Source of the DNA: Nemertoderma westbladi
Taxonomy: Eukaryota; Animalia; Xenacoelomorpha
Direction of reading: 5' to 3'
DNA length: 64,000 nt
NCBI GenBank assembly: GCA_032718475.1
Contig: JAUCBJ010007408.1
Coordinates: forward strand, 1-64,000
Within the stretch, counting starts at the first letter, position 1, and the number at the start of each line of letters is the position of its first letter. Positions 10,581 to 57,391 of the stretch are shown here, piece after piece. The notes under the pieces were generated by a model. It was given only the letters and a program-made list of their open reading frames with translations. It was not told the origin of the DNA and searched no databases. Made by a program: the position numbers and the translations under genes.

Positions 10581-10699
10581 CCATCTGCCTACTTACTCTT
10601 TCTTTATTTATTTTATTATTTTTTTATATTTTATGTGTAGGAAGGGCGTCTCGACCTCAATCCCACCCACCTCAGTCCAAAACTTGGACGACTAAACAC

Positions 10700-19093: not shown

Positions 19094-19147
19094 CTTTTCT
19101 CTGGCTGACTAGTCAGTTTCTAGCGGGCAACAGTTGGCTCTTATCAC

Positions 19148-20336: not shown

Positions 20337-20464
20337 AGTAGTAGATAAAGCATGGCCCTCGCAGAAGTCCTCCCTAAGCCTGGGCTATGCACATTTCGTT
20401 CGGAGGCAATTAAAAAATACCAAATTCTGGTGCTAAATTGCGACGCGGGCCACATCTGTCACCA
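20337..20464 (+). repeat. Polinton left TIR (core)
   Basis: Reverse complement of 39889-40016 with about two mismatches. Confidence 0.93.
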
Positions 20465-21007: not shown

Positions 21008-21454
21008 ATGTCTTCTGATTCCGATATGGTTATGCCAATGGTAAGGCATTCATTTTTTGCAGAAGATGGTCAAGCCTATATTGTTATTGATTATACAATT
21101 TACCGTCAGGGAGATGATAAATATAAAATTGAGTTTTCTGAAAAAGCCAGGAAAGTTTTAAGCTCAATTGATATTGATGCTTCTGATAATAGTGTTCATC
21201 TTTTAGATTACAACCTGAAAGCTGAGCATGGGGGAGGAAAATTAAGCAACATTTTACTATTATCCATGATAGAGGGGTTTATTGTTATTACACAATACAA
21301 CGAAGCTGGTGAAAAGTTTGAAATACGGCTAAATCGGCATAGCCCCTACGAAATTATGTCTTTCTTTATTGTAATGATTTCAAAAGAATCCTTTGTCGAA
21401 CCTGAAGAATCAACGGATAATGTTGAATATGTTGATAATATCATTGATTCTTGA
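21008..21454 (+). CDS. Polinton hypothetical protein (148 aa)
   Basis: Clean ORF with an AATAATG start context like neighbouring genes; no motif recognised. Confidence 0.6.
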   Translation: MSSDSDMVMPMVRHSFFAEDGQAYIVIDYTIYRQGDDKYKIEFSEKARKVLSSIDIDASDNSVHLLDYNLKAEHGGGKLSNILLLSMIEGFIVITQYNEAGEKFEIRLNRHSPYEIMSFFIVMISKESFVEPEESTDNVEYVDNIIDS

Positions 21455-21623
21455 CTTTTCCCCCTATATTATAAATATTTTATGATTATATATAAAATTT
21501 TGTTGTTTTTAAATAATCGAAAATTGTAGTAGTATTTGTATATACAGTATAACAGTTTTGTTTGTTGTTGTTGTTGTTGTGTATTGTGGTAATTATTTTC
21601 AAATTTACTTTAAAATTTGGAAA

Positions 21624-22076
21624 ATGGATATTTTAAATGAAAAATGTCCAGTTTGCTATTCTAAGTTATTGCAACAACATCGGGATTATTATAAGTGTGA
21701 AAATAAACATGCAACTTGCGTACAATGTATTGCACAATATTCAGAAATGAATAATTATTGTTCTAAAATTTGTCCTATTTGTCGCGCACCCATATCTAAG
21801 TTTAATATAAAGTTGGCAAGATACCAACCCTATTATTGGAAAGAGCTTCGCAATATAACTTATATTTCTGCGAAAAGTAATGATCCGGGAGATTTATTTA
21901 CAATATTGGAGAATATTTTTTATAGAAACGTAGTACGACGCTGTTGCTACTATATTCCTTATTTTTTTAGCAGCGAACATAAAAAAATCATTAGCGCGAA
22001 ATTTTCGGGAAGTGATTTCCAATCCGCCGATATTACCTATCATTATTTCGCATATAAAGATGCTCACCATGCTTGA
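21624..22076 (+). CDS. RING-finger (C3HC4) protein, putative E3 ligase
   Basis: CPVC-x13-C..KH..CVQC...CPICR pattern; ATG at 21624. Confidence 0.8.
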   Translation: MDILNEKCPVCYSKLLQQHRDYYKCENKHATCVQCIAQYSEMNNYCSKICPICRAPISKFNIKLARYQPYYWKELRNITYISAKSNDPGDLFTILENIFYRNVVRRCCYYIPYFFSSEHKKIISAKFSGSDFQSADITYHYFAYKDAHHA

Positions 22077-22289
22077 AATTACATCAGTCTATACTATAAT
22101 TGGAAATAGCACCTTTTGCTGCAGCGAGCGTCACATACTGTAGTGGCGTCGTATGTTAATTAAATATACAGTACTCTAATATTGTAGTTGCATCAATTAT
22201 TGTTATATACATAGTAATGGTGTTGGTTTATTGATATTGATATTGATATTATATTATATTGTATTGTTGATATATCTTAATAATAATAA

Positions 22290-22970
22290 ATGGCTGACTT
22301 TAATTCAGGTCCATATAATTTAAACTTTCAAATGGGTACAAGTATGATAATTTCAGGGCCATCTGGTTCCGGAAAGTCTACATTTGTTGGCAATTTAATT
22401 AAACACAAGAATGGTTGTTTCAACGAAGCCCCCTTGCGAGTATTGTATTGTTACGGGAGCAATCCCCCGACTATTCCTGGTATTACTCACCTTTACAAAG
22501 GCTTGCCTGAAAATATAGATAGTTTAGTGAATAGTCGAGATTTATTAATTATAGATGATTTGTTAACAGAAACTGAGTCCAGTACAGCTTTAACTGTATT
22601 GTTTACTAAGGTAGCTCATCATTCCAATATATTTATTTGTTTTATAACGCAAAACATGTTTTACGGTGGGAAGCATAACCGCACAAGATCAATTAATAGC
22701 CATACTTTAGTATTAATGAAAAATCCGAGAGACAGTCTATCGGTTTTAAATTTCGCGAAGCAGATGTTACCAGGGCAGACCAAATTTTTAGTTGATTCCT
22801 ATCAAGATGCGACAATTGAACCATTTTCACATTTCTTAATTGATTTACGACAGGAAACACCCGAACATTTAAGATTTAGATCTGATATATTTCGTAATCA
22901 TAATTGTTACATTAAAAATTACACTGACTATAAACGTAGCGAAAATAATAATAATAATAATGATAAATAA
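22290..22970 (+). CDS. A32/FtsK-like genome packaging ATPase
   Basis: Walker A GPSGSGKST, Walker B LLIIDD, HH.NI...ITQN, RTRSIN, KNPRD. Confidence 0.93.
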   Translation: MADFNSGPYNLNFQMGTSMIISGPSGSGKSTFVGNLIKHKNGCFNEAPLRVLYCYGSNPPTIPGITHLYKGLPENIDSLVNSRDLLIIDDLLTETESSTALTVLFTKVAHHSNIFICFITQNMFYGGKHNRTRSINSHTLVLMKNPRDSLSVLNFAKQMLPGQTKFLVDSYQDATIEPFSHFLIDLRQETPEHLRFRSDIFRNHNCYIKNYTDYKRSENNNNNNDK

Positions 22971-23007
22971 TTAATATTTTGTAACAATTTTCAATAATGT
23001 TGCAACA

Positions 23008-23391
23008 ATGAATATACTTGTGCAGAAATATCGTAACGAACTGGAATTTCTATGCAGCGCTACCCCTCAACAAAGAACTTATTTTATTAACCATACCGCC
23101 AGTAACGAATTAATACGACTCATTGTAAATACTGCATTAAATGTTCTAAAAGGTAATGTACAATTGACCCCTCATTCATTTAGAAATATTCGCCGCTATA
23201 AGAAGGTATTGAAATCACTCAACCGTAAAACAAAAAATATATCAAGTTACAGAAAAAAGTTAAGCAATCAATCTGGAGGCATACTACCGTTTCTAATACC
23301 CTTACTCGGCATTGGTGCGAAACTTGCCGCGAGTGCCGGTGCCGCTGCCGCGGGGGCTGCTATTGCGAAAAAAATTAACCGTGGACGGTAG
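23008..23391 (+). CDS. Small basic Polinton virion/core protein
   Basis: Basic protein with QSGG followed by hydrophobic ILPFLIPLLG, typical of Maverick small structural proteins with an adenain-type cleavage site. Confidence 0.7.
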   Translation: MNILVQKYRNELEFLCSATPQQRTYFINHTASNELIRLIVNTALNVLKGNVQLTPHSFRNIRRYKKVLKSLNRKTKNISSYRKKLSNQSGGILPFLIPLLGIGAKLAASAGAAAAGAAIAKKINRGR

Positions 23392-23397
23392 GTAATA

Positions 23398-23553
23398 ATG
23401 GTTAAAACGGGAGTAACATTTAGAAAATTATATTTAGTATCGAGTAAACCGTTAGCTACTGATTTAAAACCACAAGATATACCTAGAGTAAATACTACAA
23501 AAAGAAAACCCTTTAAAACATCAACTTCGAAGAAAATAATTAAAAAATTTTAG
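23398..23553 (+). CDS. 51-aa lysine-rich ORF (below the ORF-track cutoff)
   Basis: AATAATG start; MVKTGVTFRKLYLVSSKP...KKIIKKF*; fills the gap between two genes. Confidence 0.4.
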   Translation: MVKTGVTFRKLYLVSSKPLATDLKPQDIPRVNTTKRKPFKTSTSKKIIKKF

Positions 23554-23619
23554 TTGTTCTTACGGTGATGCCCTTTATAAGAGATTTGAATATACATATT
23601 ACTTGCGGTTATCGAAAAG

Positions 23620-24711
23620 ATGCCTCGCAAGATGAAACCGATTTTAAGCCGAAGCTTAGACAAAAAACTGTTAAGAATTTATTTAGATCCTTCATCCCCT
23701 GCGGGATTTGCAAGTGTTGCAAAATTAGCAAAAGCTGCAAACATCAAACCGGCGCAAGCCCAGAAATGGTTGAGCGGACAAAAGACATACACCCTTCACG
23801 CTCCACGTAGACAACATTATCCAACATCTAAAATATTTACGGGAGGCATAAAAGATATATATATGATAGATCTGGTGGATATGCAGCAATATAAATCGCA
23901 AAATAATAATTATAACTATATATTAACGTGCATTGATGCCTTCAGTCGGCTTGCTTTTGCCTATGGTATGAAAACAAAAAAGGGTATTGAAATTATTAGT
24001 ATATTGCAAAAAATATTCCAGAAAGGAAAACCAAACAGAATCGCCACGGATCAAGGTTCTGAGTTTCTAAATAAATCTGTAAGGAAATATTTAGATACGT
24101 TAGGTATACAGTATTACGTAATGTATTCTGTGAATAAGGCGGCTATTGTCGAGAGATTCAACAGAACCTTAAAAACAAAGATGCTCAAAATTTTCAAGCA
24201 AAGGGGAAATAATATTTGGATAAAAATTTTACCTAAGCTTATCTCGGCTTATAATAGGTCGTATCATAGGACAATAAAAATGACGCCTATTGAAGTTAAT
24301 AAATTTAATGAAACTGAATTAATGAATAGATTATATGGGAAATATAGACAGATAAATCACAAGAAAATAAAATTTAAAGTTGGAGATACAGTACGATTAT
24401 CTATCGCTCGTACTGCTTTTGCTAAAGGCTATCGAGAACAATGGACACGTGAATTATTTATTATTCATCGGGTCAGGTTGGATAGAGTACCAGCGGTAAT
24501 GTTCGATATTAAGGACAGCACCGGAGCTATAATAAAGGGCTCATTTTATTCTCACGAACTCCAAAAGGTTCACCCGAATAGTAATATTTATCTAGCAATT
24601 GACAAAAAAAATATTGGCAAACTTAAAGAACGTGTACGCAATGGGAAGAAAGAATATTTAGTCCGATTCATCGGATCCAAGAAACAGTCCTGGGTACAGC
24701 ATATTCAATAA
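23620..24711 (+). CDS. Polinton retroviral-like (RVE) DDE integrase with C-terminal chromo-like remnant
   Basis: IDLVDM, CIDAFSR, TDQGSEF, AIVERFNRTLK, YN.SYHRTIKMTP, FKVGD.VR, F.KGY...W, GSFY..EL, EYLVRFIG. Confidence 0.94.
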   Translation: MPRKMKPILSRSLDKKLLRIYLDPSSPAGFASVAKLAKAANIKPAQAQKWLSGQKTYTLHAPRRQHYPTSKIFTGGIKDIYMIDLVDMQQYKSQNNNYNYILTCIDAFSRLAFAYGMKTKKGIEIISILQKIFQKGKPNRIATDQGSEFLNKSVRKYLDTLGIQYYVMYSVNKAAIVERFNRTLKTKMLKIFKQRGNNIWIKILPKLISAYNRSYHRTIKMTPIEVNKFNETELMNRLYGKYRQINHKKIKFKVGDTVRLSIARTAFAKGYREQWTRELFIIHRVRLDRVPAVMFDIKDSTGAIIKGSFYSHELQKVHPNSNIYLAIDKKNIGKLKERVRNGKKEYLVRFIGSKKQSWVQHIQ

Positions 24712-24798
24712 GCTTAGGTTTATACTGTATATTAATTCATTTTGGTCGCATATGACCGTAATTAATCAATAATATTAACTCGAATGATATTACTATAT

Positions 24799-25020
24799 CT
24801 ATAGTTCATCCGCTTTAAATAAAGCCAGTAAAATATGATACATAATAAATATTGTCATCAATGTAAAACGATTAATCATAAATATAAAAGAAGTAGATCG
24901 TACCAACAACGTCATAATGTAACCAACTGCAATAGCATAAACTCCATCTCCACAAATAAGCCAGTAAAATATTGATCCCACGCATATACTGTAGAAGATG
25001 CTGGCAATGAACGTGGTCAC
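24799..25020 (-). CDS. Possible small membrane protein
   Basis: 73-aa, strongly hydrophobic ORF antisense to the structural block; GTG start. Confidence 0.3.
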   Translation of the reverse strand: MTTFIASIFYSICVGSIFYWLICGDGVYAIAVGYIMTLLVRSTSFIFMINRFTLMTIFIMYHILLALFKADEL

Positions 25021-25096
25021 AGATGTCTATAATTTAACATTATACTGTATGTACAAAGGAGTCAAGTAGAGAGAGCGAGCTTAAATAATAATAATA

Positions 25097-25969
25097 ATGG
25101 CCACAGATACATATATCACTCTACTTTCAGATAGCTCATTGAACACTTATCCCAATAATAATCCTAGTGAGTTTACTGTTGATTTAGCCGAAGAATTATA
25201 TATTGGTCCAAATGCCAAAATTGGGCTTGCCGAACTTCAATATCATGCAACATACAGTAATATTACGCTGCAAACTCAAATCTCACTGTCAATCGGGGTA
25301 GATGCAAAAGATGCCAAATTATATAGTTTATTTCCTGGTATGCATAACTCTATTCAAGTGATTATTGATGATATAAATAAACTGTTTAATTCTGAAGCGA
25401 AATATAGAGATTTCGAATTCATTTTTAATACAAATAATTCTAGAATTAAATTTAAATTTCCTAAAAAGTTGAAAAAAATACAATTAAGTCTACGTGGTGA
25501 TTTAATACAAATTCTAGGCTTAAAACCGTTATTGGATCGGAATCATCCGGATATTCCGAATTGGGATATATACAGTACCACTACAGTAGATGAATTAAGC
25601 AATATAGAACAGCCGATATTAATTTTAAATTATAGCGGGCCAAAAATTTCGGAAATTGGCATTTTAGATTTTCCAGCTCCCACGAATATAACTCGTAATA
25701 AAGACACTATCTTTATATACACAGATATTATTAAGAGCTCATTTGTTGGCGACGCTTTAGCTCCGCTCTTAAGAACCTGCCCTTTAACGCAATTAAATCG
25801 AAAATATATTAATCACGAATACGAGAGCATTTGCTATTTCCCATTGTTGAATAAAAAACTAAAAACAATCTTAATTACTTTACGTGACGGCCAAGGCCAA
25901 TTAATTAACTTCAGCGGAGGTCGCACTGTTATAACACTTAAGTTAATACGGGGTGGCGGTGATGGATGA
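25097..25969 (+). CDS. Minor capsid protein (penton-like), copy 1
   Basis: YITLLSDSS...YPNN.PSEF.V.L; IGLAEL; IFIYTDII....VGD..APLLR; YFPL....I.I.LRDGQGQLINF..G...ITL: the Polinton mCP pattern. Confidence 0.8.
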   Translation: MATDTYITLLSDSSLNTYPNNNPSEFTVDLAEELYIGPNAKIGLAELQYHATYSNITLQTQISLSIGVDAKDAKLYSLFPGMHNSIQVIIDDINKLFNSEAKYRDFEFIFNTNNSRIKFKFPKKLKKIQLSLRGDLIQILGLKPLLDRNHPDIPNWDIYSTTTVDELSNIEQPILILNYSGPKISEIGILDFPAPTNITRNKDTIFIYTDIIKSSFVGDALAPLLRTCPLTQLNRKYINHEYESICYFPLLNKKLKTILITLRDGQGQLINFSGGRTVITLKLIRGGGDG

Positions 25970-26807
25970 GTTCTACGTTAGACTACCGAGTAATTCCTGT
26001 CCAATTGATTTTCCCCGCAATAGCGCTAGTAATTATCAGATAAATTTCCACGGCGCCTTACCTATAAATCCAAACGAAAACTGGGTGGTAGGTATAAAAA
26101 GTATATTTTACTTAGCAACGTTGCCGTCCATGTATAACAATGTAGAGAATGTTATTTTATTAGAAAAAGGGAAAAAAATTTTTGAGGATACACTTCCATC
26201 TGGTTTATTCTACAGTATCAATGACATTATAGATTATTTTAACACAGGAGCGTTGAAGGATAAATTACAAATAGTTGAAAATACTCAGCAAAATAGATTG
26301 CAATTTATTTTAGGGAAAACTGTGCGAGAGTTATTTATAGGCCAACAATTAGCCTATTATTTTGGAATTACTGAAAATAATCTCGGCGCGAATTTAAATC
26401 CAAATTTTAAAATTATTTTGAAGACAAAAAATAATATAAAGGGTTATTTAATAAAGGTTATCGGAAATGGAGAAAAGGCTTACCAGATGGTATTTTTATG
26501 CCCTCAACCACCCAACTCTATTCCAGAACCTAAGTCGAACATGTACGTGGCTACTAATATAATTGAAAATCAATATATTAACGATTTTGGTTTAGCTTTA
26601 CTTCGTCGTGTTGCGATACCTGATGATGTGAAATATGGTAGCGTAATAAATAAAGAATTTGTCAAGGATACAATTCATTATATCCCTGTAAAAAAATCAT
26701 ATAAGATAACATACATTCATATTGAAATAACAGACAAAGAAGGAAAAGATTTGAATTTTGAATACGGCACAACTTCTATTACATTACACTTTAAACGTAT
26801 AAATTAA
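25962..26807 (+). CDS. Minor capsid protein (penton-like), copy 2
   Basis: Same pattern: FYVRLPSNS...FPRNSASNY; WVVGIKSI; MYVATNIIENQ....LLR; YIPV...IHIEITDKEGK..NF..GTTSITLHFKR. Confidence 0.8.
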   Translation: MDEFYVRLPSNSCPIDFPRNSASNYQINFHGALPINPNENWVVGIKSIFYLATLPSMYNNVENVILLEKGKKIFEDTLPSGLFYSINDIIDYFNTGALKDKLQIVENTQQNRLQFILGKTVRELFIGQQLAYYFGITENNLGANLNPNFKIILKTKNNIKGYLIKVIGNGEKAYQMVFLCPQPPNSIPEPKSNMYVATNIIENQYINDFGLALLRRVAIPDDVKYGSVINKEFVKDTIHYIPVKKSYKITYIHIEITDKEGKDLNFEYGTTSITLHFKRIN

Positions 26808-26808
26808 A

Positions 26809-27369
26809 ATGGATTCTGATTTATTTCAAAGATACAGTAAACCTCAATATGGGGGTTCAGACTCTAATCTTGCTGTTTTTAAAGGCAGAAGAAGTACCAG
26901 AGGCTCGACGCAAGTTCCTGTTTTTCGTGGTGGTTCATATATTGACCCTTACGGTCAACAAATTGGCACATTTGGTCCAAACTTAAAACAGCGTCGTTTT
27001 CAGCGTTATCGTAGAGGTATGCGGGCAAATCAACACGGAGAAGGTATATTTACAGACGCCTTATTGACATTGAAAAAATTTGGTAAGCCATTAGCTAAAA
27101 AAGTTTTACAGAAAGCTTTACCATTTACCACAAAATTTATGAGACAACACGTAATACCAAAAGGTAAGCGGGTCTTACATCAGCAGGCTAATACGGTTAT
27201 TAATAAAGCATTAAATAAAATGAAACCGTCAACAAGGTCGGTTGTAGAAAAAGTTTATAGAGATTTAAAGCGACCCGCTAGACCAATGTCTATGAACATA
27301 CATCATCGACGTAGTAAAAAGAGAAATATAAAAGGCAACCTGAAACACTGCGAAAAAAGTATTTTTTAA
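26809..27369 (+). CDS. Basic core/DNA-condensing protein
   Basis: Arg/Lys-rich; QYGG, VF.G and QHGEGIF motifs typical of the Maverick gene upstream of the MCP. Confidence 0.7.
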   Translation: MDSDLFQRYSKPQYGGSDSNLAVFKGRRSTRGSTQVPVFRGGSYIDPYGQQIGTFGPNLKQRRFQRYRRGMRANQHGEGIFTDALLTLKKFGKPLAKKVLQKALPFTTKFMRQHVIPKGKRVLHQQANTVINKALNKMKPSTRSVVEKVYRDLKRPARPMSMNIHHRRSKKRNIKGNLKHCEKSIF

Positions 27370-27371
27370 TA

Positions 27372-28631
27372 ATATCAATTATTAAGGAATTAGATTTATT
27401 TTCTACACAGCCAATACAGACTGAATTTAAAGCAAAGCATTATGAAACAATTTACCCCGTATCTAATCTCAGAAGTGAATCTAGGGAGGTCACCTTCCTT
27501 GTACCCAGATCCAATGAATTCTATACGAAACTGCAAGACGCGTTATTAATTACAAAATGTACAGTACGTTGGGATAGACGACTTGAAAACTCCCATATTT
27601 ATATGCTGAATTACCCAGCTGAAACTATGTGGAGTGATATTAAAATAGACCTTAATGAGAAGCAGGTTGAAAATAGCAATAACCATTATTTCTACAAGTC
27701 GTACTTATCCAATTTATTATTTACAACTTACGAGGATAAAAATGGGCTACTGGGTGCGGGTAGTTTTCATCAACCTTTATCTGAACACGGAAATGAAATT
27801 GATCCCGGCGCGCATCCTATTGCCGATGCCTTTAGTAAACAAATGCAATTTGTAAGTGGATTGACGATTGATTTTGATACTGAAACTAAAATAATACAAC
27901 CTGGGTATGATTTAAGAATGCATTTTAGAAAAGTATCAAATTCGTTTATTTTTAAAATCACTCCAAACGCAAACGCCGTGACAAATCTTCGACTAGAATT
28001 AGATGAAATAAAAATTATAATCCCTAGAATGGAGGTTAATCCAGTAATAGAAAGCAGTCACCTAAAAGGTTTAGAGAGCTACGATATTGAATATCAATTT
28101 CAAAAAAAGGAGGTGACAACATTTACTATTCCCGCTCAAACCACAAATTACACTCAAACAAACATATTTGATGGTAAAAAACCCAAATTAGTTATTATTG
28201 GCTTCATAACAAATAACGCTTATTCGGGAGAATTAATTAGCAATCCCTTGAAATTTGAACATTTTAACCTTAGACGCGCGGAACTGATTGTAGACGGTCT
28301 TCCAGTAGGGGGTGTAATATACGAACCTAATTTTACAGATGGAACATATATTTTTGAGTATACTCAATTAATGAAGAACATTAATACATATATTAACGGT
28401 TATGGGGGTAATAATATAGACCATGAAACCTACTTAGGTAATTGTCCCATCCTATCCTGGGACCTAACCGCCGACGGCTACGTTAGAGATCCGCAACCGT
28501 CGATATATACTAACGGTCAATTAAAATTAAGATTTGCCGAACCGTTGGTTGAAACCATAAATGTAATCGTTTTTAATATTTATGATCAATCATTAAGTTT
28601 AAATAGCAGGAAAGAAATACATATCGATTAA
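27372..28631 (+). CDS. Major capsid protein (double jelly-roll, PY)
   Basis: The frame is open upstream of the tracked ATG (27603) and contains the N-terminal ELDLF motif at 27387. Also NIFDGKKPKLVIIGF, G....NPLKFEHFNL, DLT.D and L.LRFAEPL. Start inferred at ATA 27372. Confidence 0.88.
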   Translation: MSIIKELDLFSTQPIQTEFKAKHYETIYPVSNLRSESREVTFLVPRSNEFYTKLQDALLITKCTVRWDRRLENSHIYMLNYPAETMWSDIKIDLNEKQVENSNNHYFYKSYLSNLLFTTYEDKNGLLGAGSFHQPLSEHGNEIDPGAHPIADAFSKQMQFVSGLTIDFDTETKIIQPGYDLRMHFRKVSNSFIFKITPNANAVTNLRLELDEIKIIIPRMEVNPVIESSHLKGLESYDIEYQFQKKEVTTFTIPAQTTNYTQTNIFDGKKPKLVIIGFITNNAYSGELISNPLKFEHFNLRRAELIVDGLPVGGVIYEPNFTDGTYIFEYTQLMKNINTYINGYGGNNIDHETYLGNCPILSWDLTADGYVRDPQPSIYTNGQLKLRFAEPLVETINVIVFNIYDQSLSLNSRKEIHID

Positions 28632-28633
28632 GT

Positions 28634-29308
28634 ATGTTATCTACAGAGGACCTTGATAAGTTTCCAGTAAAATGGTTCCAGTTTCCAGAAAAAAAAATTT
28701 CCAGTAATAAAATGGATAATATTATTTTTGTTGATTTTCAATATTATAAGATAGACAATAAAGAGTATCCGGTAGTATTTAAAGAATTTGCAATATACGA
28801 TTCTAATTACACCAAAACTAATGTAAAGACGTTTTTAATTAAAGGCCCGTCTAATATTAAGTTATCAGCTTTAGATGCAGCTCACGTAAACAATTTACGG
28901 GATATGACTTCTCACTTGCCCTGGGACTACGGGGACATTTCTCAAGATGACTTTAAAAAATATATGAAGAGACATTTAAAATATAAAAAAAATATTCATG
29001 TATTTGGGTTGCTGAAACGGGTAATATTAGTTTCCCAACTCGATGTTCTCGAACCAAATTTGGTGGAGAAATTGGGAATATATAAGCAATATCACGATTA
29101 TTTAACACCTTGTCGATTTCACGACCGATTCACTACAATGGAAAGTAAATGCGCGTTCCACTTAAACATAAGGGATAACTGTCTGCGATACTGCTCAGCA
29201 AAATGTGTTGGCGGGTATGAGGCTCTACACTTTTTCATGAGAAAGCGTTTAACTGCGACTGATGATGATAAACAGAAAGAAATAACTGCGGTGGAAGATG
29301 TACTGTAG
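28634..29308 (+). CDS. Putative DEDD-fold nuclease-like protein with Cys/His tail
   Basis: IIFVDFQ...VFKEFAI, HLPWDYGDI, C..H...CA..H...C; resembles a family common in Mavericks. Confidence 0.5.
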   Translation: MLSTEDLDKFPVKWFQFPEKKISSNKMDNIIFVDFQYYKIDNKEYPVVFKEFAIYDSNYTKTNVKTFLIKGPSNIKLSALDAAHVNNLRDMTSHLPWDYGDISQDDFKKYMKRHLKYKKNIHVFGLLKRVILVSQLDVLEPNLVEKLGIYKQYHDYLTPCRFHDRFTTMESKCAFHLNIRDNCLRYCSAKCVGGYEALHFFMRKRLTATDDDKQKEITAVEDVL

Positions 29309-29649
29309 GTTTACTCTAAGCATGTAATGTAATGTGATGGGATAATATAATTGTTTTAATGTCAATAAAAATAATAAAATATAATTTTTTTACAAGTTCT
29401 CTAAAAAAGAGTCAATTGCGCTAGGTTAACCATACACCTTTAACAATATGATGTAGACGTAACATGTACAGTAAGTATTCTCGATATCATTCTAATATAG
29501 ATGTACTGGTATTGCGAAACATCCTTTACGTCGCAAACTAATAACACATACAGTAGTTGACTAGTAATATTAGTCAGAAAATGCAACATAATCTGTATAG
29601 GGTGTAATGATAACCTGTTGGTACCGGTTCTGATAAATTATAGGCCTAT

Positions 29650-32600
29650 CTACAACGGTCATCCACTTTATCAGTACCGGTAGTGTTTTACTCTTCCAAC
29701 ACTGTAGTCGCTGTCTACTGGTATCGGTACAGCAGTAATCTGATGCATGCGGGGGTCTCACATACAGGGATTAGATCACCTATCCAAACAATACAGTACT
29801 GCTGTACTGTCGCTGTTCTTGATGTAACAGCATAATCAGATAGAGCATACTGATTTCCTTTGATTAGCATTGTACCGTACTGCAGTACCCAGCAAATACA
29901 TATCCAGCGATTAGCACGCTAATAGCGGGATGTACCATCCTGCTAATATCCCGCCATTTTTATAAGATAATATCCGGATAATCGCCGTAAAAGTGGTCCC
30001 CGCTATAGCGGTGTTTTTAGCGGGATAATTATCCGGTTTTTAGCGGTTCCTTAGCGGCACTTTAGCGTGGATTTAGCGGCATTTGTAGCTGCCCAGGTTA
30101 AAAAAAATTAGCTTTGTCCAATCACATAGCGTTCCTTGTGCATACTCTGTGGACAGATGAGGGGAGGGGGGGGGGGGGGGTGGGGCTGGAGTGGTTAGCC
30201 TACCATACCTACCCTATGCCTACACCTACACCCTACGGTCCTACACCTACAATACTCTATACAAACTGAGATGTAATCGTTTGAGTATAATAAGAGAATA
30301 TATAATGCATTAAGACTTAGGAGTATCCTATATAACTTTAAGCGATCATCAAAAAATATTAATTCGATTATTAAAATCTATATATTTGATCTTATTTACA
30401 ATCATATTAGATAATTCATAATTATGAATTTATTAAAAATAATAAATTGTAAACTGTTTCTAATCGATTATTCGAAGACAAGAAACCATATATCTATCCA
30501 ATAATTTCAGTTTTCTGCAAATTGAGGTAGTGTCGGGGGGTTGGGGTTGGTGGTTTATGTAAATGCAGTTTAATTTTTGACAGTTTAACATTTTTTTTGT
30601 TCACTGCAAAAATGTACAAATGAAAATTTAAATACAGTACATATTGTCTGTACTACTGTATAACAACTGTAGGTACTGTAACCTGAGATACTGTAGGTAC
30701 TGTATAAATTATTTCCTTAGATAGTTACTAAATTCTTTCCTTTGATTGAGTTTAAACTCTCCCTCCCACCACCACCACCAGGTATATCTACCCCATCATC
30801 ATCTGCACAAACCGGTTCTTAGTGCATTATATTGAATGAGAGTTAATATTAAATATAAATTAATATCGATTGTATCCATCCGTGAATTTGTGTTTTGTTG
30901 TCATTAGATTATTTAAATTGTTGTTTTATCTTATTCTACTGTATTACAGTATGTATCCGGGGCAATATCAAAAGTGTTATAATTGCGAAGTGCTTAATGT
31001 TGTTAGGATGTTGTAAATAATTTTAATTATCAAAAACGTCATTGGGATGGCTTTAATTATGGTAAACTTGTGAAAGTTCATAAAAATTAAAACATCGTGC
31101 CATGATCGTTCATATTTTAGGTACTGTACTGTATTGTTGATATAAATAAATGGACGTAAAACTGAATGAAAAGTGAACGATCATTATTGAATGTGTTGGT
31201 TCATATTTAATTACGTTCAACTAGTGATTAAAATTATTACATTATTTTAAAATTTCAAATTGGCTAATTGGGGTATTTCACTGGTAATGTCGGCATGTTG
31301 TACCTAGGGCCTACTGTAATCCAAACATTGTCTCATAGATTATTACGTCATGGGTTAAAACTGAATAAGTAACCATATGTCAATGTTCAATATCTTTGGC
31401 GAATGTCTTCTGCTTCCTGGAGTATGTTTGTACATATGTTATGGAGGAATACTGTACACATGGCCTCATCCATCCAGAAAAGAGGGGGGGGGGGGTGGAG
31501 TGGTTTCTGACGGCAGCCAAAATTCATATCTAGTCCTATCCATAATAATTTAACAATGAGACGAGATATTAATTCGCCGAGATGGGATTTGTTTTGTGTA
31601 AGTACAACTCACCCCCCCCCCCCCCCCCCCACGTCTCCACCCACCATCCCTTAGTCGCTAGAACACCGCTATTTACTTTTATATTTAGCGACTAAATTGG
31701 TGCTAAAATCCCGCTACTCTCAGCTAGTTTTAGCTTCTCTACTGCTAAATTGACGCTAAAACCCCGCGATCTATTAGGTCGATTTATTCATACGCTAAAG
31801 TGACGCTAAATCAAGGATTTTTTCCAGATATTTAGTGGATATTTTCTCCAGCGAATTGCCGGAAACTATTATCCGGCTATTAGCTGGATATTAAAACGCT
31901 AAAAACCAAGCTAGCGGGGTTTAGCGGGGTTTAGCTGGATATTATCCGGATATTAGCCGGATGTGTCTTTGCTGGGTACCGGTACGACAGTACCTGCAGT
32001 AACAAACTAAACCAATGTATACAATATCGTGAGCTAGTTACAATCAGATGTGTACACAGTCAGCCACGCTGCGGGGATGCGATCAACCTCACAGATAGCC
32101 TAGCAGCTCCTATCCACAACTGTCATCCACTTTATCAGTACAGCAGTAATCTGATGTAATAGCATTTGTTTTTTTTCACCTATAAGGATACTGCTGTCTA
32201 CCCGAACCTTGATTAGCATACTGCTGTCATAACCTAGATTACATCACCTATCCAAACAATACAGTACTGCTGTACTGTCGCTGTTCTTGATGTAACAGCA
32301 TAATCAGATAGAGCATACTGATTTCCTTTGATTAGCATTGTACCGTACTGCAGTACCGGTACGACAGTACCTGCAGTAACAAACTAGGCTAATGTATACA
32401 ATATCGTGAGCTAGTTACAATCAGATGTGTACACAGTCAGCCACGCTGCGTGGATGCGATCAACCTCACAGATAGCCTAGCAGCTCCTATCCACAACTGT
32501 CATCCACTTTATCAGTACAGCAGTAATCTGATGTAATAGCATTTGTTTTTTTTTCACCTATAAGGATACTGCTGTCTACCCGAACCTTGATTAGCATACT

Positions 32601-32885
32601 GCTGTCATAACCTAGATTACATGCAGGGGTCTCACATATAGGGATTAGATCCCCTACCCAAACAATACAGTACTGCAGTACTGTCGCTGTTCTTGATGTA
32701 ACAGCATTGTCAGATAGACCATACTGATTTCCTTTGATTAGCATTGTACTGCAGTACGGTACCGGTACCACAGTAATAATGTAACAGCACCCGTAGTAAC
32801 AAACTAAACCATTGTATACAATATCGTGAGCTGGATATAATCAGATGTGCGCACAGTCAGCCATGTTGCGGGGATGCAGTCAACC
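29650..32885. repeat. Imperfect tandem repeat (~370-400-bp unit, ~3 copies) in the Polinton centre, first copy split by an insertion
   Basis: Blocks such as GTCATCCACTTTATCAGTAC, CAAACAATACAGTACTGC.GTACTGTCGCTGTTCTTGATGTAACAGCAT and AATATCGTGAGCT each recur three times. Confidence 0.85.
29888..31976. mobile_element. Non-autonomous DNA transposon (2,089 bp), TA TSD, CCCAGCAAA TIRs (EnSpm/CMC-like termini)
   Basis: TA|CCCAGCAAA...TTTGCTGGG|TA, with subterminal TAGCG/CGCTA repeats. The uninterrupted site CTGCAGTACCGGTACGACAG is present in the next repeat unit (~32348-32367). Confidence 0.85.
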
Positions 32886-33182
32886 ATGCAGTCAGAGCAG
32901 CATCGCTGCCACCCTCGCGAGCAGCCTCGCGGCACGCAGTCAGCCTGAGACCCTCGCAGCTAGTCACGCAGTCAGCCTCGTGGTCGGTCATGCAGTCAGC
33001 CAGCCAGCCACGCAGCTTGGCACGCAGTCAGCCCGTGAGAGTCATACTTATTCAAACGAGGTTAGTTTTCCCTAACTACCGATAGATTGATTGAAAAATA
33101 ATAATAATGTTTAATTTTCATCTTCTAATCACCAACACCTAAAGTCGCAACACCAAACATTAATAAATAATTAACAAGTTTA

Positions 33183-33701
33183 CTAAATCATAGGGTAATA
33201 AATATGAAATTTGCTAGGTGAACACATTAAAGTACATTTACCGGTATGAAAGCAGCAAATGACTACGGTATTATTTATTCTTATTTTGCAATTATTAAAA
33301 ATTTCAGGTTCATATATAACTTGAAGTTGCACATTATCAAAGACAACATAAAACCCGGTATTGTTTATCAATAACCTATAGACTACAGACTTAATACTAC
33401 AAATATAAGTACATAAATTAACAGATTTTAAAATCAAATTAATACTAGTTTTATCAAATATATGCTTTTTTACTTTTTGGAAATTATACTTACTGCCTAA
33501 TAATGTAATACGACCATTTTTAAATATTAATAATGTGGCACCAAATATCTTATATATAAACTGATTTGGTTTGAGTATGTGTTTACCAGATAATTGATTT
33601 TTTAATTCTTTAAAATTAATCGCTAACACTTGCTGGCAACTTATATTTTTATTTACTATTTGATAATTCATCATCAATACCATCGTCTTTTGGTTCTTCA
33701 T
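33183..33701 (-). CDS. TATA-binding-protein (TBP)-fold protein
   Basis: Two TBP half-repeats: INFKEL...TLLIFKNGRITLLGSK and YEPEIF...ICCFHTGKCTLM (cf. TBP LIF.SGK...TG and YEPELF). Overlaps the pPolB stop. Confidence 0.7.
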   Translation of the reverse strand: MKNQKTMVLMMNYQIVNKNISCQQVLAINFKELKNQLSGKHILKPNQFIYKIFGATLLIFKNGRITLLGSKYNFQKVKKHIFDKTSINLILKSVNLCTYICSIKSVVYRLLINNTGFYVVFDNVQLQVIYEPEIFNNCKIRINNTVVICCFHTGKCTLMCSPSKFHIYYPMI

Positions 33702-36700
33702 AAATTGGTATATTTGATATTTTTATAGGTTTTTTGAGGTTTGTTTTATAGTGCCCCCAAGGAAGCGAATGATTTTTATTAACCCAATAAAGTTTATCGT
33801 CAAAGCTACTGAGTGCAAATTTATTTTGCTTTAAGGTATAAATACGATGTAATTTAGATTGAAATCTGTGTATGTTTTTTTTTATTTCTTCATTTGAGTT
33901 ATAGGCTTTTAAATATTCTTCATGTGTAATATTCGTTTCCACAACAGCTCTTGTAATACCTTTTGCTCTACGAATATTTTTGTTATTCCATTCCAAAATT
34001 GAATATAATTTTGGTCTTAAAAATACTGCTTGTTTAATTTCACGTGAGGCTAGTTCGTCTTTACAGTAATAGAGTCTGGATTTATTTTTATCGCTGTAGA
34101 GAGGGTGATCCTTAGGGTAATTGGAAGTATCTAAAATATTATTTTTAATTAATGCTTTTAAAAAATTATTCTGCGATGTATTATAATAACAACCTATCAA
34201 AGAGTCAGTGTCTGATGCAGCAATTTCAATACGGCAGTTTAATTCTTTCTCAATAGGTAGCAATTTATTGTAAAACAGCTCATACATATCCAATTTAGCC
34301 AAGTCCAACACAGCGCTACCAATAAATATAGGCTTATCGAGAGTTACAGAGTCTTTCACTAATAAATGTCCCGATAATGTATTATTGTATATTATAAATT
34401 GTTCATGATTAATACGATTTACCAATTGATCGCATTTATCGTTGCTATTTGCGATACGAAAGTTACATCGATCTCTTATCTTTTCTATTGTTTTACCAAA
34501 CAGAGAATTATTGAGCAATTTCGCGACAGCAGTTTCAATGTAACTTTTTGCTAGGCGCCTTTGATTAATATTAAAATCTATGTAATTTTTAAATACAAAT
34601 TCTTGTTGAAAAGAATATAATTTATGGAGCTTAGTAACAATTAATCCATGTTTTATATAAAATTTTAACAGTTTCAAATGTAAATGATAAAACTCTTTAT
34701 CAAATTGCGTCAGCAAGAGTTTTGGTGTAGACATCCTATATTTACGGGAGGTACCTCTTTGTATCGATAAATTATTAAATTGTTCCCGCATATAAGGCGA
34801 AAGCATTGTTTCATTTATACTTAAATGCTCAGGGGCTAACGGTAATTGTAATGTTTGATCGTGAATAGCCTTGGGATAATTTAAATCACATATTAAAAAA
34901 TATCCAGTAGATCCATCAATGTCTAAATTTACCAAGTACTCGATTAGTTTTTCTGGAATTGCATTCTCTAAGTGTTTAATACTTACTTCTTTGAATTGCG
35001 AGGTGGGTAGTTTTTTACTTAAATTCCCAGAATATAAAGAGTTGAAATCAATATTAAAAATATGGCATTCTTCCTTAGTAGAATCATATGTGCTTGTTCC
35101 GGGTATATTTGATTCTATATAATGCTTTCGACAAAATGAAACACCACCCCTAATTGATTTTTCAAAATCTCTATATGTCTGATAATCCTTTATTAATTCT
35201 ATTTTACATTTATTATATTTTAGTGCACAATCATAGGTAAATGACGCAATACTACAGTAAAAAACCACTTCTAAATCGTAATTTTGTTTACAAATATTCC
35301 TAAAATTCTCAAATATATCAGCAAGCAAACAAACATCGAGTTTTAAATAGGCTAAAAGATAATCTTTGAGATTCACACAGTCAAATTCTACCCATGATAA
35401 TTCTGCAAACCTATAATCTTCAATTGCGCATGTTTTTTGTGTTAAGTTACTAAAAAAATTATTTATAGACGGCAAACCAGTATCATTAAATTTATTAATA
35501 TCTGTCAAGTACTCGTATGGAAATACACCTTTCCGTTTAATTGTTGAGTTATTCAAGTTTGGATAAAAATATTTCATTTCTTGTAGAGTAATAGGTAAAA
35601 TTGAGCTTATATCATGACTCGCTACATCCTTTGTTGAACACTCAACTAAATTAGTTAAAGAAAAGCTTAAAAATTGATATGTGTCCAAGAAACGTAACTC
35701 AATTTTTTTTAGAAGTGTTTTTAATTGGGATAAATGCACTCATTGAAATATATCGTTCTGTATTTCTCGGTATAACCTTTATATCCCAATCTGTGTATTT
35801 CTTATCTCTAAATCCGGTTTGTAATAAATATACAATGTATATCGTAGTTGTTGGAATTATGCCCGCAAAGTACATACAGGTATCGTTTCAATGATAAACT
35901 TCGGTTACAGCTATTACATGCTGCTGCAATATATTTACCTGTGATATGTGAATGATGTCTGTTTTTCCCCACATTATTATTTAAAGTAACATTACAATAG
36001 AAACAGAATTTTGCTTGTTGAAAATTTACAAAATCAATATTAGTAAATGACATAGTTTTATGTGTATATATGTCTGACCAACAACATAATTCAGTTAAAT
36101 CAGTATATAATGAATCTAAGAAATCTTGAATACAATTATTATTATTTGATTTTACGAATGTTTTCAAATGACATTTTGGTGGGTCAATTAATTCAGTATT
36201 GGGAACAATTAAATAACTCACAGCACACGGTATATGTTCCTGTATAAATTGATTGTTAACTGAAGGTTGTAAGATACATTCTATATCAAAGTAGGTGACA
36301 AACAATGGGGATAAGGTTCTATCTAAATTTGTAAAACTAATGTGTGTTCTTTTTTTTTTATTAGGTAGTTTCTCGCGTTGACTTCTTCCTTGGTAGCAGA
36401 CGAGACGGTGTCGATGAAGAACTTCCGCTCGAAAAAAATGAGTCAAACACCTTTCACAAAATTGCCTACCTCGAGTATGAAGAGCTCTCGTATTCAGCAA
36501 TCGATTCAAGTTAGTTATGCAAACATAATGATTCTGTTTAGGTACATTGTTATTTTTTACTACAAGTAATATATTTAATAACTGTTTATCAGGTGTAATT
36601 TTACTAAACGGCGGTTGTCTTAATATAGATACAGGGGAGTGTTTGTTATCATTATTCCAACATAGTAAATTAATTATATATTTTGAATTTTGTTTTTCAA

Positions 36701-37715
36701 AAAGTTTAATCGCTAACAGCCACTCTGTTGGATAATCTTTGTTCCCATTGTCAAAAATGAAATGACTCATATAATTTTTGTACGATGAAGTACGGTTTTT
36801 GTGATCTTTCACTTTGCTACCAAATTTTGCGGATATAATTGCCCATTTAAAACAGTCATTATCAGCCGATTGTACATTTATAACACATCGTTTACCTGAT
36901 AGAGCCTTAGGTAATTCCATATATCCATGCCCCTTATATAGTAACGACCTACACTTAGATTCAGCTAATTTAATTTCAACCCTTAATAAAGATTTAATAC
37001 GCCACCCGGAACCACGTGTGTTAAAGATGGCTATTTTTTGTAATATATTTCCCGTCACATACTCAAACCATGTGTCAAAACTTTCTGATGAATCTACAGT
37101 ATTAATAGCACCACCGGAAGAATTAAAATAAAAGGTTTCCAATTGCTCACCTTGTGAAAAATGTGATCTGTACATTAATACATTTAGACCTAACCACAGT
37201 CTAAGAACATTCATTTCTTTCAATCTATCTAATATTAACTGAAGAATATTACCTCGAATTTGCGTTAATGCTGTTTCTACATCGGGATAATCTCTAGAAG
37301 TTGGGAGGTCGTGGACATAAATTTCAAGACGATTATCGTGAGCTTCTTGTTCCCGCGTAAAAATTGTTGTGCATGTACCAAGAGCCACCCTTAAGTTTTT
37401 TCTGGATATTATATTTTTATGTTGCGAAAATTTACGCTTTCTTGTGTAGTAACATTTCAAGTGACAGTCGTGTCGTATATAATTCTCATATGTATACTCT
37501 TTATTACAGGTAGAACAAGTCAATTGATAGGTGCGGAACTCCATTTCTTTACAACCAGTAGTTGTAAAATGTCGTTTACAAATTTCGCTGCATGAAGTCA
37601 CGACATGACACTTTAAACAAGAATAACCTTCAAAATGTGTCCGTAGGTGGCGTAAATAATTATGTCTAGTTATATTCATATGACAGAATGAACAACATAT
37701 TGTTATTTTATCCAT
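33649..37715 (-). pseudogene. Protein-primed family B DNA polymerase (pPolB), two +1 frameshifts near 35700-35830
   Basis: N-terminal C2H2 fingers; GSGW; CFKWAI; ExoI YFDIEC; Endonuclease-VII-like CFYC...HHSHITGKY..AAC..CN; HN...YD; RKGVFPYEY; IDFNSLY; KLLNNSLFGK; SDTDS; KG. The bridge LLQTGFRDKKYTDWDIKVIPRNTERYISM lies in a third frame. Confidence 0.93.
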
Positions 37716-37864
37716 GTTGAAGTTTGTTTAGATAAATAATAATAATAATAATAATAATAAAATATCTCCAAAGATTAAAATAAAATGAAATGAAATGAAA
37801 TGATATTGACTATATCTAAACATTTATATGCTAGCGGGTGAAATAATTTTAAATCAATCACCAA

Positions 37865-38953
37865 TCACCAATCGCTTATGGGTATTGGAAACCCCAAAGG
37901 GTTTAACTTATGATCAGGTTTCCATGTAACCTCATCTACTGGAACTCGGTTAACAGCACATTTCTGTTTCTTTGCAGGTGATGCGTTGGTAAATTTACTC
38001 GATGATCTTGGCTTCCGAGGTAATATTTCAGGAAAGACCTGTTGCGGTTGAGAGCAGCTCTCTTCAACATCCGGATTAGGTGATGGGATCTCTACGAACG
38101 CTTTAGGTTTATCCAAAAGGACAAAGCCGTCAACGTGGGCTTCAGTAAGAGAAACGCCATCCAGCGATTCTTTGAGAAAACTAATATGGGCTTTATCATT
38201 CAAGTAATGCAACTCGATAGAATTTCCGCCGGCGCCTACTTCCGTAGAATTATCGGTGTTGGTGATAATAATTTTTTTATTATTGGTTTTAATCATTTTG
38301 AGACGGTCTGATAATTGAATGATATTTTTATCAAAAAGATGCTTGTCTGTTTCAGCGACTTGGTTGTCCCACTCTCGCAGCAAAACAGTTAGTTCCTGTT
38401 TTGACAAATTGAAACCCGTATAATAGTTAAAACCAACACTATCAACGTATCTGAGGCTGATTTTCCATAAGCCAACATAGTTGGTTCCTTTAAAAGCTGT
38501 TACAAATCCAATAAACTCTGGATTTGATAATTCAATGTAGAATTGATCGCTAATAATCTCTAGCGGTGGAGAGAGAAATTGCAATAATTTCCCTCTGTAT
38601 TGAATTAGAACTTCAGTAAAAGCTTTGTTGAGAACTTTACATTTGCCTTGTTTCTGAACGTAAACATCACCCGATGTGGGGTTGATGGAAATATTCAAAT
38701 TTCCCCGCGCAAAACGAGGAGTGGGATATATCCTACCTGGTATAATTGCTGGTCTGGATTGATGTTGGTTGTTGTTGTTGGTTGTTTCTAGAATGTCTAA
38801 CAAATAGCGGGTATCTTGATGGGAAAAACAAATTGAATCGTTGTCCTCCTGAGATTCCACAATAAAATACTTGCTGCGAACGACGGTACAAGTATATTTA
38901 TTGTAAGTAAATTTCCAGCTATTTGTTGCTCCGGTTTTTTGCGTTAAGGCCAT
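37865..38953 (-). CDS. Polinton protein with possible PC4-like ssDNA-binding segment
   Basis: 362-aa ORF; VTAFKGTNYVGLWK...GFNLSKQELTVL resembles the PC4 V..F.G..YV.IR...GI.L...EW..L pattern. Confidence 0.5.
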   Translation of the reverse strand: MALTQKTGATNSWKFTYNKYTCTVVRSKYFIVESQEDNDSICFSHQDTRYLLDILETTNNNNQHQSRPAIIPGRIYPTPRFARGNLNISINPTSGDVYVQKQGKCKVLNKAFTEVLIQYRGKLLQFLSPPLEIISDQFYIELSNPEFIGFVTAFKGTNYVGLWKISLRYVDSVGFNYYTGFNLSKQELTVLLREWDNQVAETDKHLFDKNIIQLSDRLKMIKTNNKKIIITNTDNSTEVGAGGNSIELHYLNDKAHISFLKESLDGVSLTEAHVDGFVLLDKPKAFVEIPSPNPDVEESCSQPQQVFPEILPRKPRSSSKFTNASPAKKQKCAVNRVPVDEVTWKPDHKLNPLGFPIPISDW

Positions 38954-39888
38954 AATAATAATAATAATAAATACGAAAAATATTACAAGTGATAAATTTT
39001 AAACCGTATCGCTGTAATAAATTGACACCATAGTTCTCACTCTAAAATTGTGATGTAAAACAATAGAGAAGATAAGGGATCGCTTTTCTCATTGCTATTA
39101 GTAATACAGCGACCTCGTATCTTCTCTATTGTTTTACAACTCCAAGGTCGGAATCAGTATCATTTTATGTGGTGTCGTTTTCCGACCATCGAATATACAA
39201 CGAATAAGATAATGTAGAAATTATTAAGGAAATAACACAATTTCAGAGTGAGAACAAAAGTATCAATATATTACCATGAAGATTACTACAAGTGATGAAT
39301 TTTATTAAAAACATTCAGTTTATATAAATTTGCGATGTGGCACGTAGTCAACGAAGAAGATGTGGGACGTGTCATAATCATTGACGAATAAGAAAAGAGA
39401 TGTGATGCAACGTGGATGAATGGTTGGTTGCTTGCATGGATAGGAAATACGTGAAAGAATATGAATCATAGGGTTGTGTGTAATAATCAATAATTATTAT
39501 AATAAAAACGCACAGTATAATGTTAGCAGTGGTAGCCTTTCAATATGGCACAGATGCTGTGGGATTGGTTAGGTTGAGTAACTATGGAAATGTTCGTATA
39601 CGTGTAGCCGGAACGTGGCGGAATTTCAACACGTATCATAGTGGTGGACTGGTGACGGCTGTCGAAGAGTAGCACTAACTAACGGTGGGTTAAATCGTTG
39701 AGTTGGCAATCGATATAATATATGCGTGTAGTTGGTGGCCACGTCGCCATCATATACAGTATACAGCGGTGGTGGTGGTGGTGATGATGCGGTGAAAAGG
39801 TGAATAACATTAGGGTTAGTTAGTCAGTAGTCGAGTTAGGCTACGCTACGCTACGATTGGTTGATGGCAACTGCCGATCGATGGATGG

Positions 39889-40016
39889 TGGTGACAGATG
39901 TGGCCCGCGTCGCAATTTAGCACCAGAATTTGGCATTTTTTAATTGCCTCCGAACGAAATGTGCATAGCCCAGGCTTAGGGAGGACTTCAGCGAGGGCCA
40001 TGCTTTATCTACTACT
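39889..40016 (-). repeat. Polinton right TIR (core)
   Basis: Inverted copy of 20337-20464. Confidence 0.93.
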
Positions 40017-40244
40017 TAAATGGCAGATTCCCATGTATAAAAGGCAGACCTCCAGTCCTGCCATGTATAAAAGGCAGACCCCCATGTATAAAAGGCAGAC
40101 CCCCCCAATGTATAAAAGGCTATCGCTAATTTCAACTTCCAGCCAAATACATCGAAAAACTAACCTTAAATAATCGTCTCCAGCAAAAATAAGTGATGTG
40201 AGTGAGTGTGTGTGTGACTGAAATGAAAACTCAAAACATTTAAT

Positions 40245-43725: not shown

Positions 43726-44269
43726 GTTGGGCTGTGCTAAAAAGCCCAGCTAATTTGCAGCAAGCGTCAGTCCATGATTGTGTAAGGTTAACTATCCGGT
43801 CGACGTAAGTGTTAGTGATGTCACTAGGTAAGTAAATATGTATAGTGTGGATACTTGTTTGGACATGGTAGGCCCGTGGGCCTTCCGGTAAGTGTCTCCG
43901 TTTGTGCAATGGGCTTGTCTGGGTCCACAAGTACTTTCTTGGTCTCCAATGTCTTACCTTTATCATCAGAACTCGATGGGTTGACCTGTATTAGTGGTTT
44001 TAACTCTACGGCATTGGCACATTTCGTTGGACTTGTAGGTCTCCTAACGTTAGTCACACGTTTAGTCGTAGGTTGTAAGTCAGGTATTTTCCTTGAGCGT
44101 AGTGTGATACCTGTATTTACATTTGGATGGGCACGACCCATATTTGTAATACCTGTAGTCACACCATTGTCATGTTGACTCAAGCATGTCAAGGTAGGTA
44201 AGTTGGTAATACATTACTGGTCAATACTATGCCGCTCCAATGGGGTAATTGCGGTGTTATAGTATACTT

Positions 44270-44760
44270 CATTACATTCTGGTAGAATGTCTGGTGAATG
44301 GTCTGGTGGACAGTCTGGTGAGACGTCTGGCGAACAGTCTGGTGAGATGTCTGGTCGAACACATCATGGAACATCCAGCGAAATGTTAGTCGTACGTCCA
44401 ATAGAAAGTCTGGTGTAATGTCTGGTAGAATGTCTGGTCTAACATCTGGTTGACAGTCTGGCAAGATGTCTGGTACAAAGTCTGGTTGACAGTTTGGCAA
44501 GTTGTCTGGACGAAATTCTGGTGATAAATCCAGCAAAATGTCTGGTGGAAAATCTGGAGAGATGTCCAGTAGACAATCGGTCAAAAGATCTATAAAACAA
44601 TCTGGCGAAAAGTCTGGAGAGTAATCTGGAGGACAGTCTGGTGAACAATCTGGCGAAATGTCTTGTGAAGTTTCCCACGGAACGTCCGGTGAAAGATTCG
44701 TTGGTACGTCTGGTAGAATGTCTGGTGAGACATCTGGCTTAATGTCTGGTGGGGTGTCCA
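44270..44760. repeat. 12-bp-period minisatellite (TCTGGnnnnnTG-type)
   Basis: Dozens of TCTGG/TCCGG units at 12-bp spacing; reads as Pro-Asp-x-x repeats on the minus strand. Confidence 0.8.
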
Positions 44761-48240: not shown

Positions 48241-48241
48241 G

Positions 48242-55241: not shown

Positions 55242-55327
55242 GTGTTAAAGTCGCCTACTGACCCAGTAAAGTTACCGAGTACCTAGATAACTGTGACTGC
55301 CACCCACCAGAAAGAAGGAGAGACAAG

Positions 55328-57390: not shown

Positions 57391-57391
57391 T

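Follow-up and report, generated by a model that had tools for sequence, protein, structure and literature searches.

The window, a stretch of 64,000 nucleotides of Nemertoderma westbladi DNA that was analysed as a whole (contig JAUCBJ010007408.1), contains a defective Polinton copy bounded by terminal inverted repeats (TIRs) at positions 20337-40016. With 19,680 bp, the element falls inside the Polinton size range of 13-25 kb given in 10.1101/2023.08.22.554363. It comprises the following features:

20337..20464, plus strand: left TIR core, starting with AGTAGTAG; identical to the right end at 126 of 128 terminal bases
21008..21454, plus strand: orphan ORF, 148 aa
21624..22076, plus strand: RING-finger-like ORF, 150 aa (zf-RING_2, E=0.002, below the cut-off)
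22290..22970, plus strand: packaging ATPase, 226 aa (Pox_A32, E=0.002; relatives to 1e-49)
23008..23391, plus strand: pX-like basic core protein, 127 aa (Adeno_PX, E=0.013; 1.4e-7 in a relative)
23620..24711, plus strand: retroviral-type integrase, 363 aa (rve, E=8e-11)
25097..26807, plus strand: two tandem ORFs of 290 and 281 aa, probable minor capsid proteins, with homologues in related loci and no Pfam match
27372..28631, plus strand: probable major capsid protein, open frame of 419 codons, first ATG at 27603
28634..29308, plus strand: ORF of 224 aa without family match
33183..33701, minus strand: TBP-like gene, 172 aa, predicted two-lobed saddle with Pro45 at the equivalent of Phe99 and a short last helix
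33649..35577, minus strand: pPolB C-terminal ORF, 642 aa, with motifs DFNSLY, NNSLFGK and SDTDS
35808..37715, minus strand: pPolB N-terminal ORF, 635 aa
37865..38953, minus strand: ORF of 362 aa, family not recognised, called 'PC4-like' in the original prediction
39889..40016, minus strand: right TIR core, matching the left end

The presence of pPolB, the rve integrase, the packaging ATPase and the TIRs supports the Polinton context in which the TBP-like ORF had been placed. The capsid candidates are conserved ORFs at the expected places in related loci. For the two ORFs at 25097..26807 the minor capsid label is presumptive, taken from their position. Among nine aligned major capsid candidates, four match Capsid_N weakly and the window copy does not, and a comparison of the candidates with PDB sequences gave no match. 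The window pPolB is split over two reading frames, both parts of which match single ORFs in relatives. A maturation protease profile built from the proteases of six relatives matched 11 ORFs in the related loci, with a best E-value of 3.7 in the window, and no target-site duplication was found at the element ends for lengths of 4-9 bp (the Polinton criterion is 5-8 bp). The window copy is called defective because pPolB lies in two frames, the first ATG of the capsid frame is located inside the conserved region, and neither a protease nor a target-site duplication was detected.

Between 29308 and 33183, the region where relatives have the protease, 3.9 kb of the Polinton is free of long ORFs and contains internal 140-200-nt repeats; two short stretches of very high copy number lie within the element near 30150-30190 and 31612-31645. 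Directly outside the right TIR (40017-40120), short direct repeats containing GTATAAAAGGCAGAC are present. To the left, a BEL/Pao-type LTR retrotransposon (5766-19723) ends approximately 600 bp from the Polinton. Its direct terminal repeats are 97-99% alike and approximately 13.4 kb apart, its domains include Peptidase_A17, DUF1759, DUF5641 and rve, and it carries an extra 621-aa ORF (7731-9596) and 44-52-nt tandem repeats (10062-10573). A second, shorter element (54787-59201), with direct repeats approximately 4.06 kb apart, shares with the LTR element an inverted stretch of 950 nt (90%; 7396-8345 and 56437-57386) and is possibly a deleted relative of it. To the right of the Polinton, a 12-nt tandem array (44262-44752) and two ORFs of 260 and 533 aa without Pfam match (in 46074-48599) are found.

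The TBP-like gene is an ATG-to-stop ORF of 172 aa on the minus strand, the plus strand being closed at 33183-33701. In agreement with the original prediction, its start overlaps the pPolB stop, covering the last 53 nt of the C-terminal pPolB ORF. The TBP core begins at about residue 12, and M10 and M11 are possible alternative starts that likewise lie within pPolB. Both half-repeat motifs, on which the TBP assignment had been based, were located in the protein, at residues 57-69 (LLIFKNGRITLLG) and at residues 130-135 (YEPEIF) and 151-156 (FHTGKC), and the Pfam TBP family (PF00352) matches the ORF in two stretches with an E-value of 6.6e-9 and a score of 35.9 bits (cut-off 22.9). In the ESM Atlas, all 30 matches fall in TBP clusters with a score of 0.95, at a low recognition (1758). 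Single-sequence searches against the PDB, a set of 5.8 billion, viral contigs and 1.84 billion representatives were empty, and phage records returned one chance match only (E=0.9). The protein is thus very divergent and recognisable by profile only.

Structure prediction indicates that the window ORF has the two-repeat saddle fold of TBP. A model calculated from the single sequence had a pLDDT of 37, and a model based on a 97-row alignment of TBP homologues reached 83. The comparison with known folds that the original prediction had suggested supports the assignment: in a Foldseek search the top PDB rows for the alignment-based model are all TBPs and the viral matches are large-virus TBPs, while VIA-align superimposes the model on 1mp9 with a Z of 13.2 and an rmsd of 3.6 Å over 161 residues. 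In addition, an 11-sequence profile, constructed from the window protein and its homologues in the ten related loci described below, matches 35 PDB sequences, all TBP-containing, and 97 database proteins, every one of which has PF00352. The conservation of EIFPA among these 97 proteins is partly built in, since the search relies on shared words.

Key residues were mapped via the fungal TBP P0199, using yeast numbering that was taken in part from the table in PMC2265533. The window protein retains the equivalents of N69, F116, F190, F207, E186, E188 and K211, as well as both lobe glycines. Of the residues highlighted in the original prediction, the DNA-intercalating phenylalanines and the TFIIB contacts, three Phe and both Glu are kept and the first Phe has become Pro: canonical cellular TBP has four intercalating phenylalanines, whereas the window protein has three (F60, F135 and F151) and carries P45 at the position of F99. 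Residues E131 and E133 correspond to the C-lobe pair that contacts TFIIB/TFB in canonical cellular TBP. The same pattern is found throughout the locus-derived TBPs (window and ten related loci): all 11 have the F116/F190/F207 and E186/E188 equivalents and carry Pro in place of F99, and 10 of them have N69; the ten related loci, all with both glutamates, were found without word bias. The window protein differs from the rest of its family in having Asn at the Pro191 equivalent, Ser at Asn159 and Met/Cys at Thr215/Gly216, with a last helix of approximately 10 residues. The P191 and G216 equivalents are missing in the window alone and kept in all ten related loci. Several of the positions altered in the window are DNA-binding-null sites in yeast TBP according to the table in PMC2265533. 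In the basic patch of the N-lobe helix (TFIIA/TAF1/Mot1/Brf1) one of four mapped positions is basic in the window, the helix being lysine-rich (6 K/R), and the patch is acidic in loci L022, L025, L014, L018 and L021.

Of 7994 sequences scored against the C-terminal pPolB ORF, 1078 are relatives with E<=1e-20, the best 40% identical and many with PF03175/PF02945; as a single query against viral contigs the ORF found nothing, and three viral records contain no PF00352 match. Using a 31-sequence alignment, 88 pPolB-related loci were fetched, 8 viral and 80 from metagenomes (the best 80 of 355 confirmed). When all their ORFs were searched with the window protein, TBP-like ORFs were found in 10 of the 88 loci, and a deeper profile applied to ORFs from 20 aa recovered the same ten; Pfam TBP lies above its cut-off in each. 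In all ten the TBP is on the pPolB strand and downstream of it (11 of 11 counting the window), the closest pair of genes overlapping by 136 nt and the most distant lying 5.5 kb apart. The proposed linkage of pPolB and TBP thus holds with respect to strand and order, but the overlap recurs in L024 only, the other loci having the two genes 0.6-5.5 kb apart. TBP is present in 10 of the 39 loci that extend at least 1.5 kb downstream of pPolB and in 6 of the 15 that extend at least 5 kb. Six of the ten TBP-bearing loci have two or more of the capsid, integrase and ATPase genes, L021 shows capsid and protease, and three are short. In L022 and L025 the TBP gene abuts the ATPase gene. Among the TBP-bearing elements, L022 also has a KilA-N/DUF3627 gene (11783-12640), and parvovirus-type PLA2-like ORFs occur in L014, L022 and L025.

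In a quick pPolB tree of 66 loci and the window, with SH-aLRT support only and 22 loci without one long ORF dropped, all 11 TBP carriers lie in one branch of 32 rows (99). The other 35 rows, including 14 in which the sequence continues for 2.5 kb or more downstream of pPolB, have no TBP. Several carriers are near kin, so that they represent about six lineages rather than eleven. The window pPolB forms a long (1.42), compositionally odd branch. A FastTree of TBPs, from which 6 truncated hits were left out, places all 11 locus-derived proteins on one side together with 63 similar database proteins (support 96), apart from 20 sequences that a motif rule labels as Phe99-keeping. The gene thus also occurs in related elements of one pPolB branch, and the ORF at 33183-33701 is confirmed as a real, divergent member of a Polinton-linked TBP subfamily. 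Two other origins were rejected: a chance ORF at the pPolB flank, by the Pfam TBP match and by the codon-position pattern in a related copy, and a captured host TBP gene, as the ORF is without introns, has 25% GC like the element and groups with Polinton TBPs.

Related copies of the element were found in contigs of run X1, covering 29 of 30 bins; runs X2 and X3 contain next to none. One X1 contig bridges the pPolB end and the TBP start. A second differs at 36 of 212 bases (17%) within the TBP gene, in a comparison that excludes the last 23 codons (33183-33252). Among 22 listed differences in this copy, 15 are at third codon positions (p=9e-4), and they correspond to 8 synonymous and 9 non-synonymous codons and no stop, the shifted frames having 2 and 3 stops. 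The bias is weak in the bridging contig, where 6 of 13 differences fall on third positions, four listed differences in a gapped zone being excluded. These data bear on the view that the family gene is real, while the version in the window lineage is decaying or partly disabled, having lost DNA-binding residues, and no longer works. Such decay would fit the defective state of the element, the end branch of 2.72, which is the longest of 102 in the TBP tree, and the loss of the Gly216 and Pro191 equivalents together with the short last helix. It is nevertheless unlikely, because the frame is open across 172 codons, the three Phe, both Glu, Asn69 and both lobe glycines are retained, and the 17%-diverged copy shows third-position bias with no stop. 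Moreover, the window pPolB branch is long too, which points to fast change throughout the lineage.

Candidate promoter words were found in relatives. CATAAAC occurs within 120 nt upstream of 11 of the 24 genes in L022 and L025, two near relatives that are approximately 68% identical in DNA, where 0.34 is expected (p ~1e-13, the best shuffled p being ~5e-5). L022, L025 and L038 have 12, 10 and 3 sites, respectively, upstream of genes and on the sense strand; in L022/L025 this applies to 21 of 22 sites, most of them 35-75 nt before an ATG. No TBP is seen in the partial L038 contig. Two other close relatives, L011 and L015, have TTAAGC upstream of 7 of their 15 and 8 of their 13 genes, respectively. 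It is absent upstream of genes in L019 and L021, and a pooled family-wise test failed. Five elements on the TBP-free side have TATAAA before 13 of 46 genes against 4.8 expected, a non-significant excess. Among exact and degenerate 6-7-mers in the window, none passes the family-wise null; the best word, STWTAAA, precedes 8 of 13 genes (1.6 expected), with a p that shuffles reach in about half of 20 trials.

On balance, the evidence leans towards a Polinton-specific-subfamily TBP that likely binds TATA-variant boxes of element promoters and likely recruits host TFIIB and Pol II. The protein would bind such boxes in the promoters of the capsid, packaging and integrase genes of its own element, and once bound would recruit host TFIIB and RNA polymerase II; its placement behind pPolB would lead to its early production, ahead of the genes on which it acts. 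Since the window copy is defective, such a role would be that of the family and of those copies that are still active. The evidence for this role consists of the position behind pPolB in a TIR-bounded Polinton, the shared Pro-for-Phe DNA face, both glutamates, the CATAAAC and TTAAGC upstream words in relatives and the third-position bias in the X1 copy. Against it stand the failure of all window words to pass the null, the limits of TTAAGC, the occurrence of CATAAAC in L038 and the alterations in the window TBP at residues matching yeast DNA-binding-null sites; in addition, host TBP could read CATAAAC or TTAAGC boxes. Scans of 14 ORFs from the window and of 56 ORFs from eight partial TBP-bearing loci gave no Pfam match to the TFIIB family, a search in which a divergent one could be missed, and these loci may contain a divergent TFIIB-like or other partner gene. 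Together with the kept glutamates, the result points to host TFIIB, which would fit the proposal of the original prediction that the element redirects host Pol II.

The original prediction had coupled the TBP to a PC4-like protein on the other side of pPolB. The 362-aa ORF exists at this place (37865-38953, minus strand), and its likeness to PC4/Whirly was judged by eye. The whole ORF and four sub-segments gave no match in Pfam, PHROGs, PDB or Atlas, and jackhmmer found no homologue in the 88 loci. The PC4 identity is thus without support, and with it the proposed module of TBP and PC4. In five loci, small beta-sheet/helix tandem-repeat proteins lie directly upstream of TBP, often overlapping it (L011:7095-8158, L015:2105-3235, L077:4454-5489, L019:8810-9565 and L021:2793-3350). 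They have no Pfam or PDB match, and a profile comparison with the 362-aa ORF gave a probability of 0.2%. These proteins are candidates for a TBP partner or an ssDNA-binding protein.

A role in replication or packaging, in which the TBP would bend DNA through the minor groove, either at the ends of the element or together with pPolB, and play no part in transcription, is quite improbable. It would be in line with the constant position of the gene, which follows pPolB on its strand in all 11 and overlaps it in two, and with the five loci in which TBP follows the repeat proteins of no recognised family. However, the spacing to pPolB varies up to 5.5 kb, the TBP of L022 and L025 abuts the ATPase instead, the TFIIB glutamates would be needless, and most pPolB relatives outside the TBP branch show no TBP.

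A TBP gene in pPolB elements is already noted in passing in print, which limits the surprise. 'TBP' appears in the Fig. 5 legend of Starrett et al. 2021 (PMC8502044), for MELD viruses with adintovirus-like PolB, and in the legends of Figs 5-6 of the preprint 10.1101/697771. As in the window, a gene resembling TBP is thus assigned to a pPolB element of intermediate size. In the accessible text of PMC8502044 this is a legend entry only, the Results neither analysing residues nor surveying lineages nor linking the gene to promoters, and a term search of its supplement, as far as accessible, gave no TBP match. The presence of a TBP gene in such an element is therefore less new than the original prediction implied. 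Searches for TBP and TATA in PMC11161782, 10.64898/2026.10.13.758929 and 10.1101/2023.08.22.554363 returned no term match, and no study of the Polinton TBP family, its residues or its promoters was found in the literature, with subscription papers, Repbase reports and preprint supplements outside the scope of the search.

Comparison with other TBPs helps to place the family. Cellular TBPs (yeast, human and archaeal) share with the window protein the fold, the YEPEIF stirrup and the F-x-x-G-K turns, but the window protein is only 16-19% identical to them, has no N-terminal extension and has a shortened N-lobe stirrup with Pro for Phe99. The TBPs of large dsDNA viruses, as described by Ravarani et al. 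2020 (PMC7221094), have in common with it the two-lobed fold, a central Phe per lobe and a diverged N-lobe. According to the same source, the two C-lobe glutamates are the TFIIB contact, and large-virus TBPs mostly lose them (~40% conserved) and carry their own TFIIB. In contrast, the Polinton TBPs keep both glutamates in 11 of 11, with no TFIIB match, in a 20-kb element without RNA polymerase. The least probable and less favoured reading, a decoy that would bind and sequester host TFIIB (or Brf1) or regulators of TBP, would not lead to productive initiation and would thereby dampen host transcription, agrees with the retention of these glutamates beside an altered DNA face and with the lack of an own TFIIB in the ORFs scanned, but a pure sponge would not need the conserved three intercalating Phe and Asn69, TATA-variant words lie upstream of element genes in relatives, and an element that sits in the host genome and encodes no RNA polymerase would need working host TFIIB.

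For the preferred reading, a promoter-recognition TBP that acts with host Pol II, the functional model is KSHV ORF24, a viral TBP fold that serves host Pol II at a variant TATA box. Such a role is judged somewhat more probable than the alternatives taken together. The accessible text of PMC12529657 describes beta- and gammaherpesvirus TBP mimics as reading a TATT variant box, and ORF24 as multidomain, part of a six-protein complex, with four Phe and without the TFIIB glutamates. The Polinton TBP, unlike ORF24, is a bare core of 160-170 aa with three Phe and both glutamates.

The constant rewired TBP signature across the lineage and the candidate boxes in relatives offer a way to test, with a single small protein and short pieces of promoter DNA, how integrated Polintons that lack an RNA polymerase turn on their capsid and packaging genes. 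A bolder proposal, which we regard as tentative and rather doubtful, is that one branch of animal-type Polintons has a transcription switch of its own, smaller than any other known: a single TBP, captured and then remodelled on its DNA face by the change of Phe99 to Pro, would read TATA variants particular to each lineage (CATAAAC for one subfamily, TTAAGC for another) and still plug into host TFIIB. If so, the TBP and its promoter word would co-evolve, and the element would have a temporal gene programme as in a true nuclear virus. A Polinton TBP acting on its own promoters would argue for a retained, regulated viral cycle, and the family would supply natural TBP variants with altered specificity.
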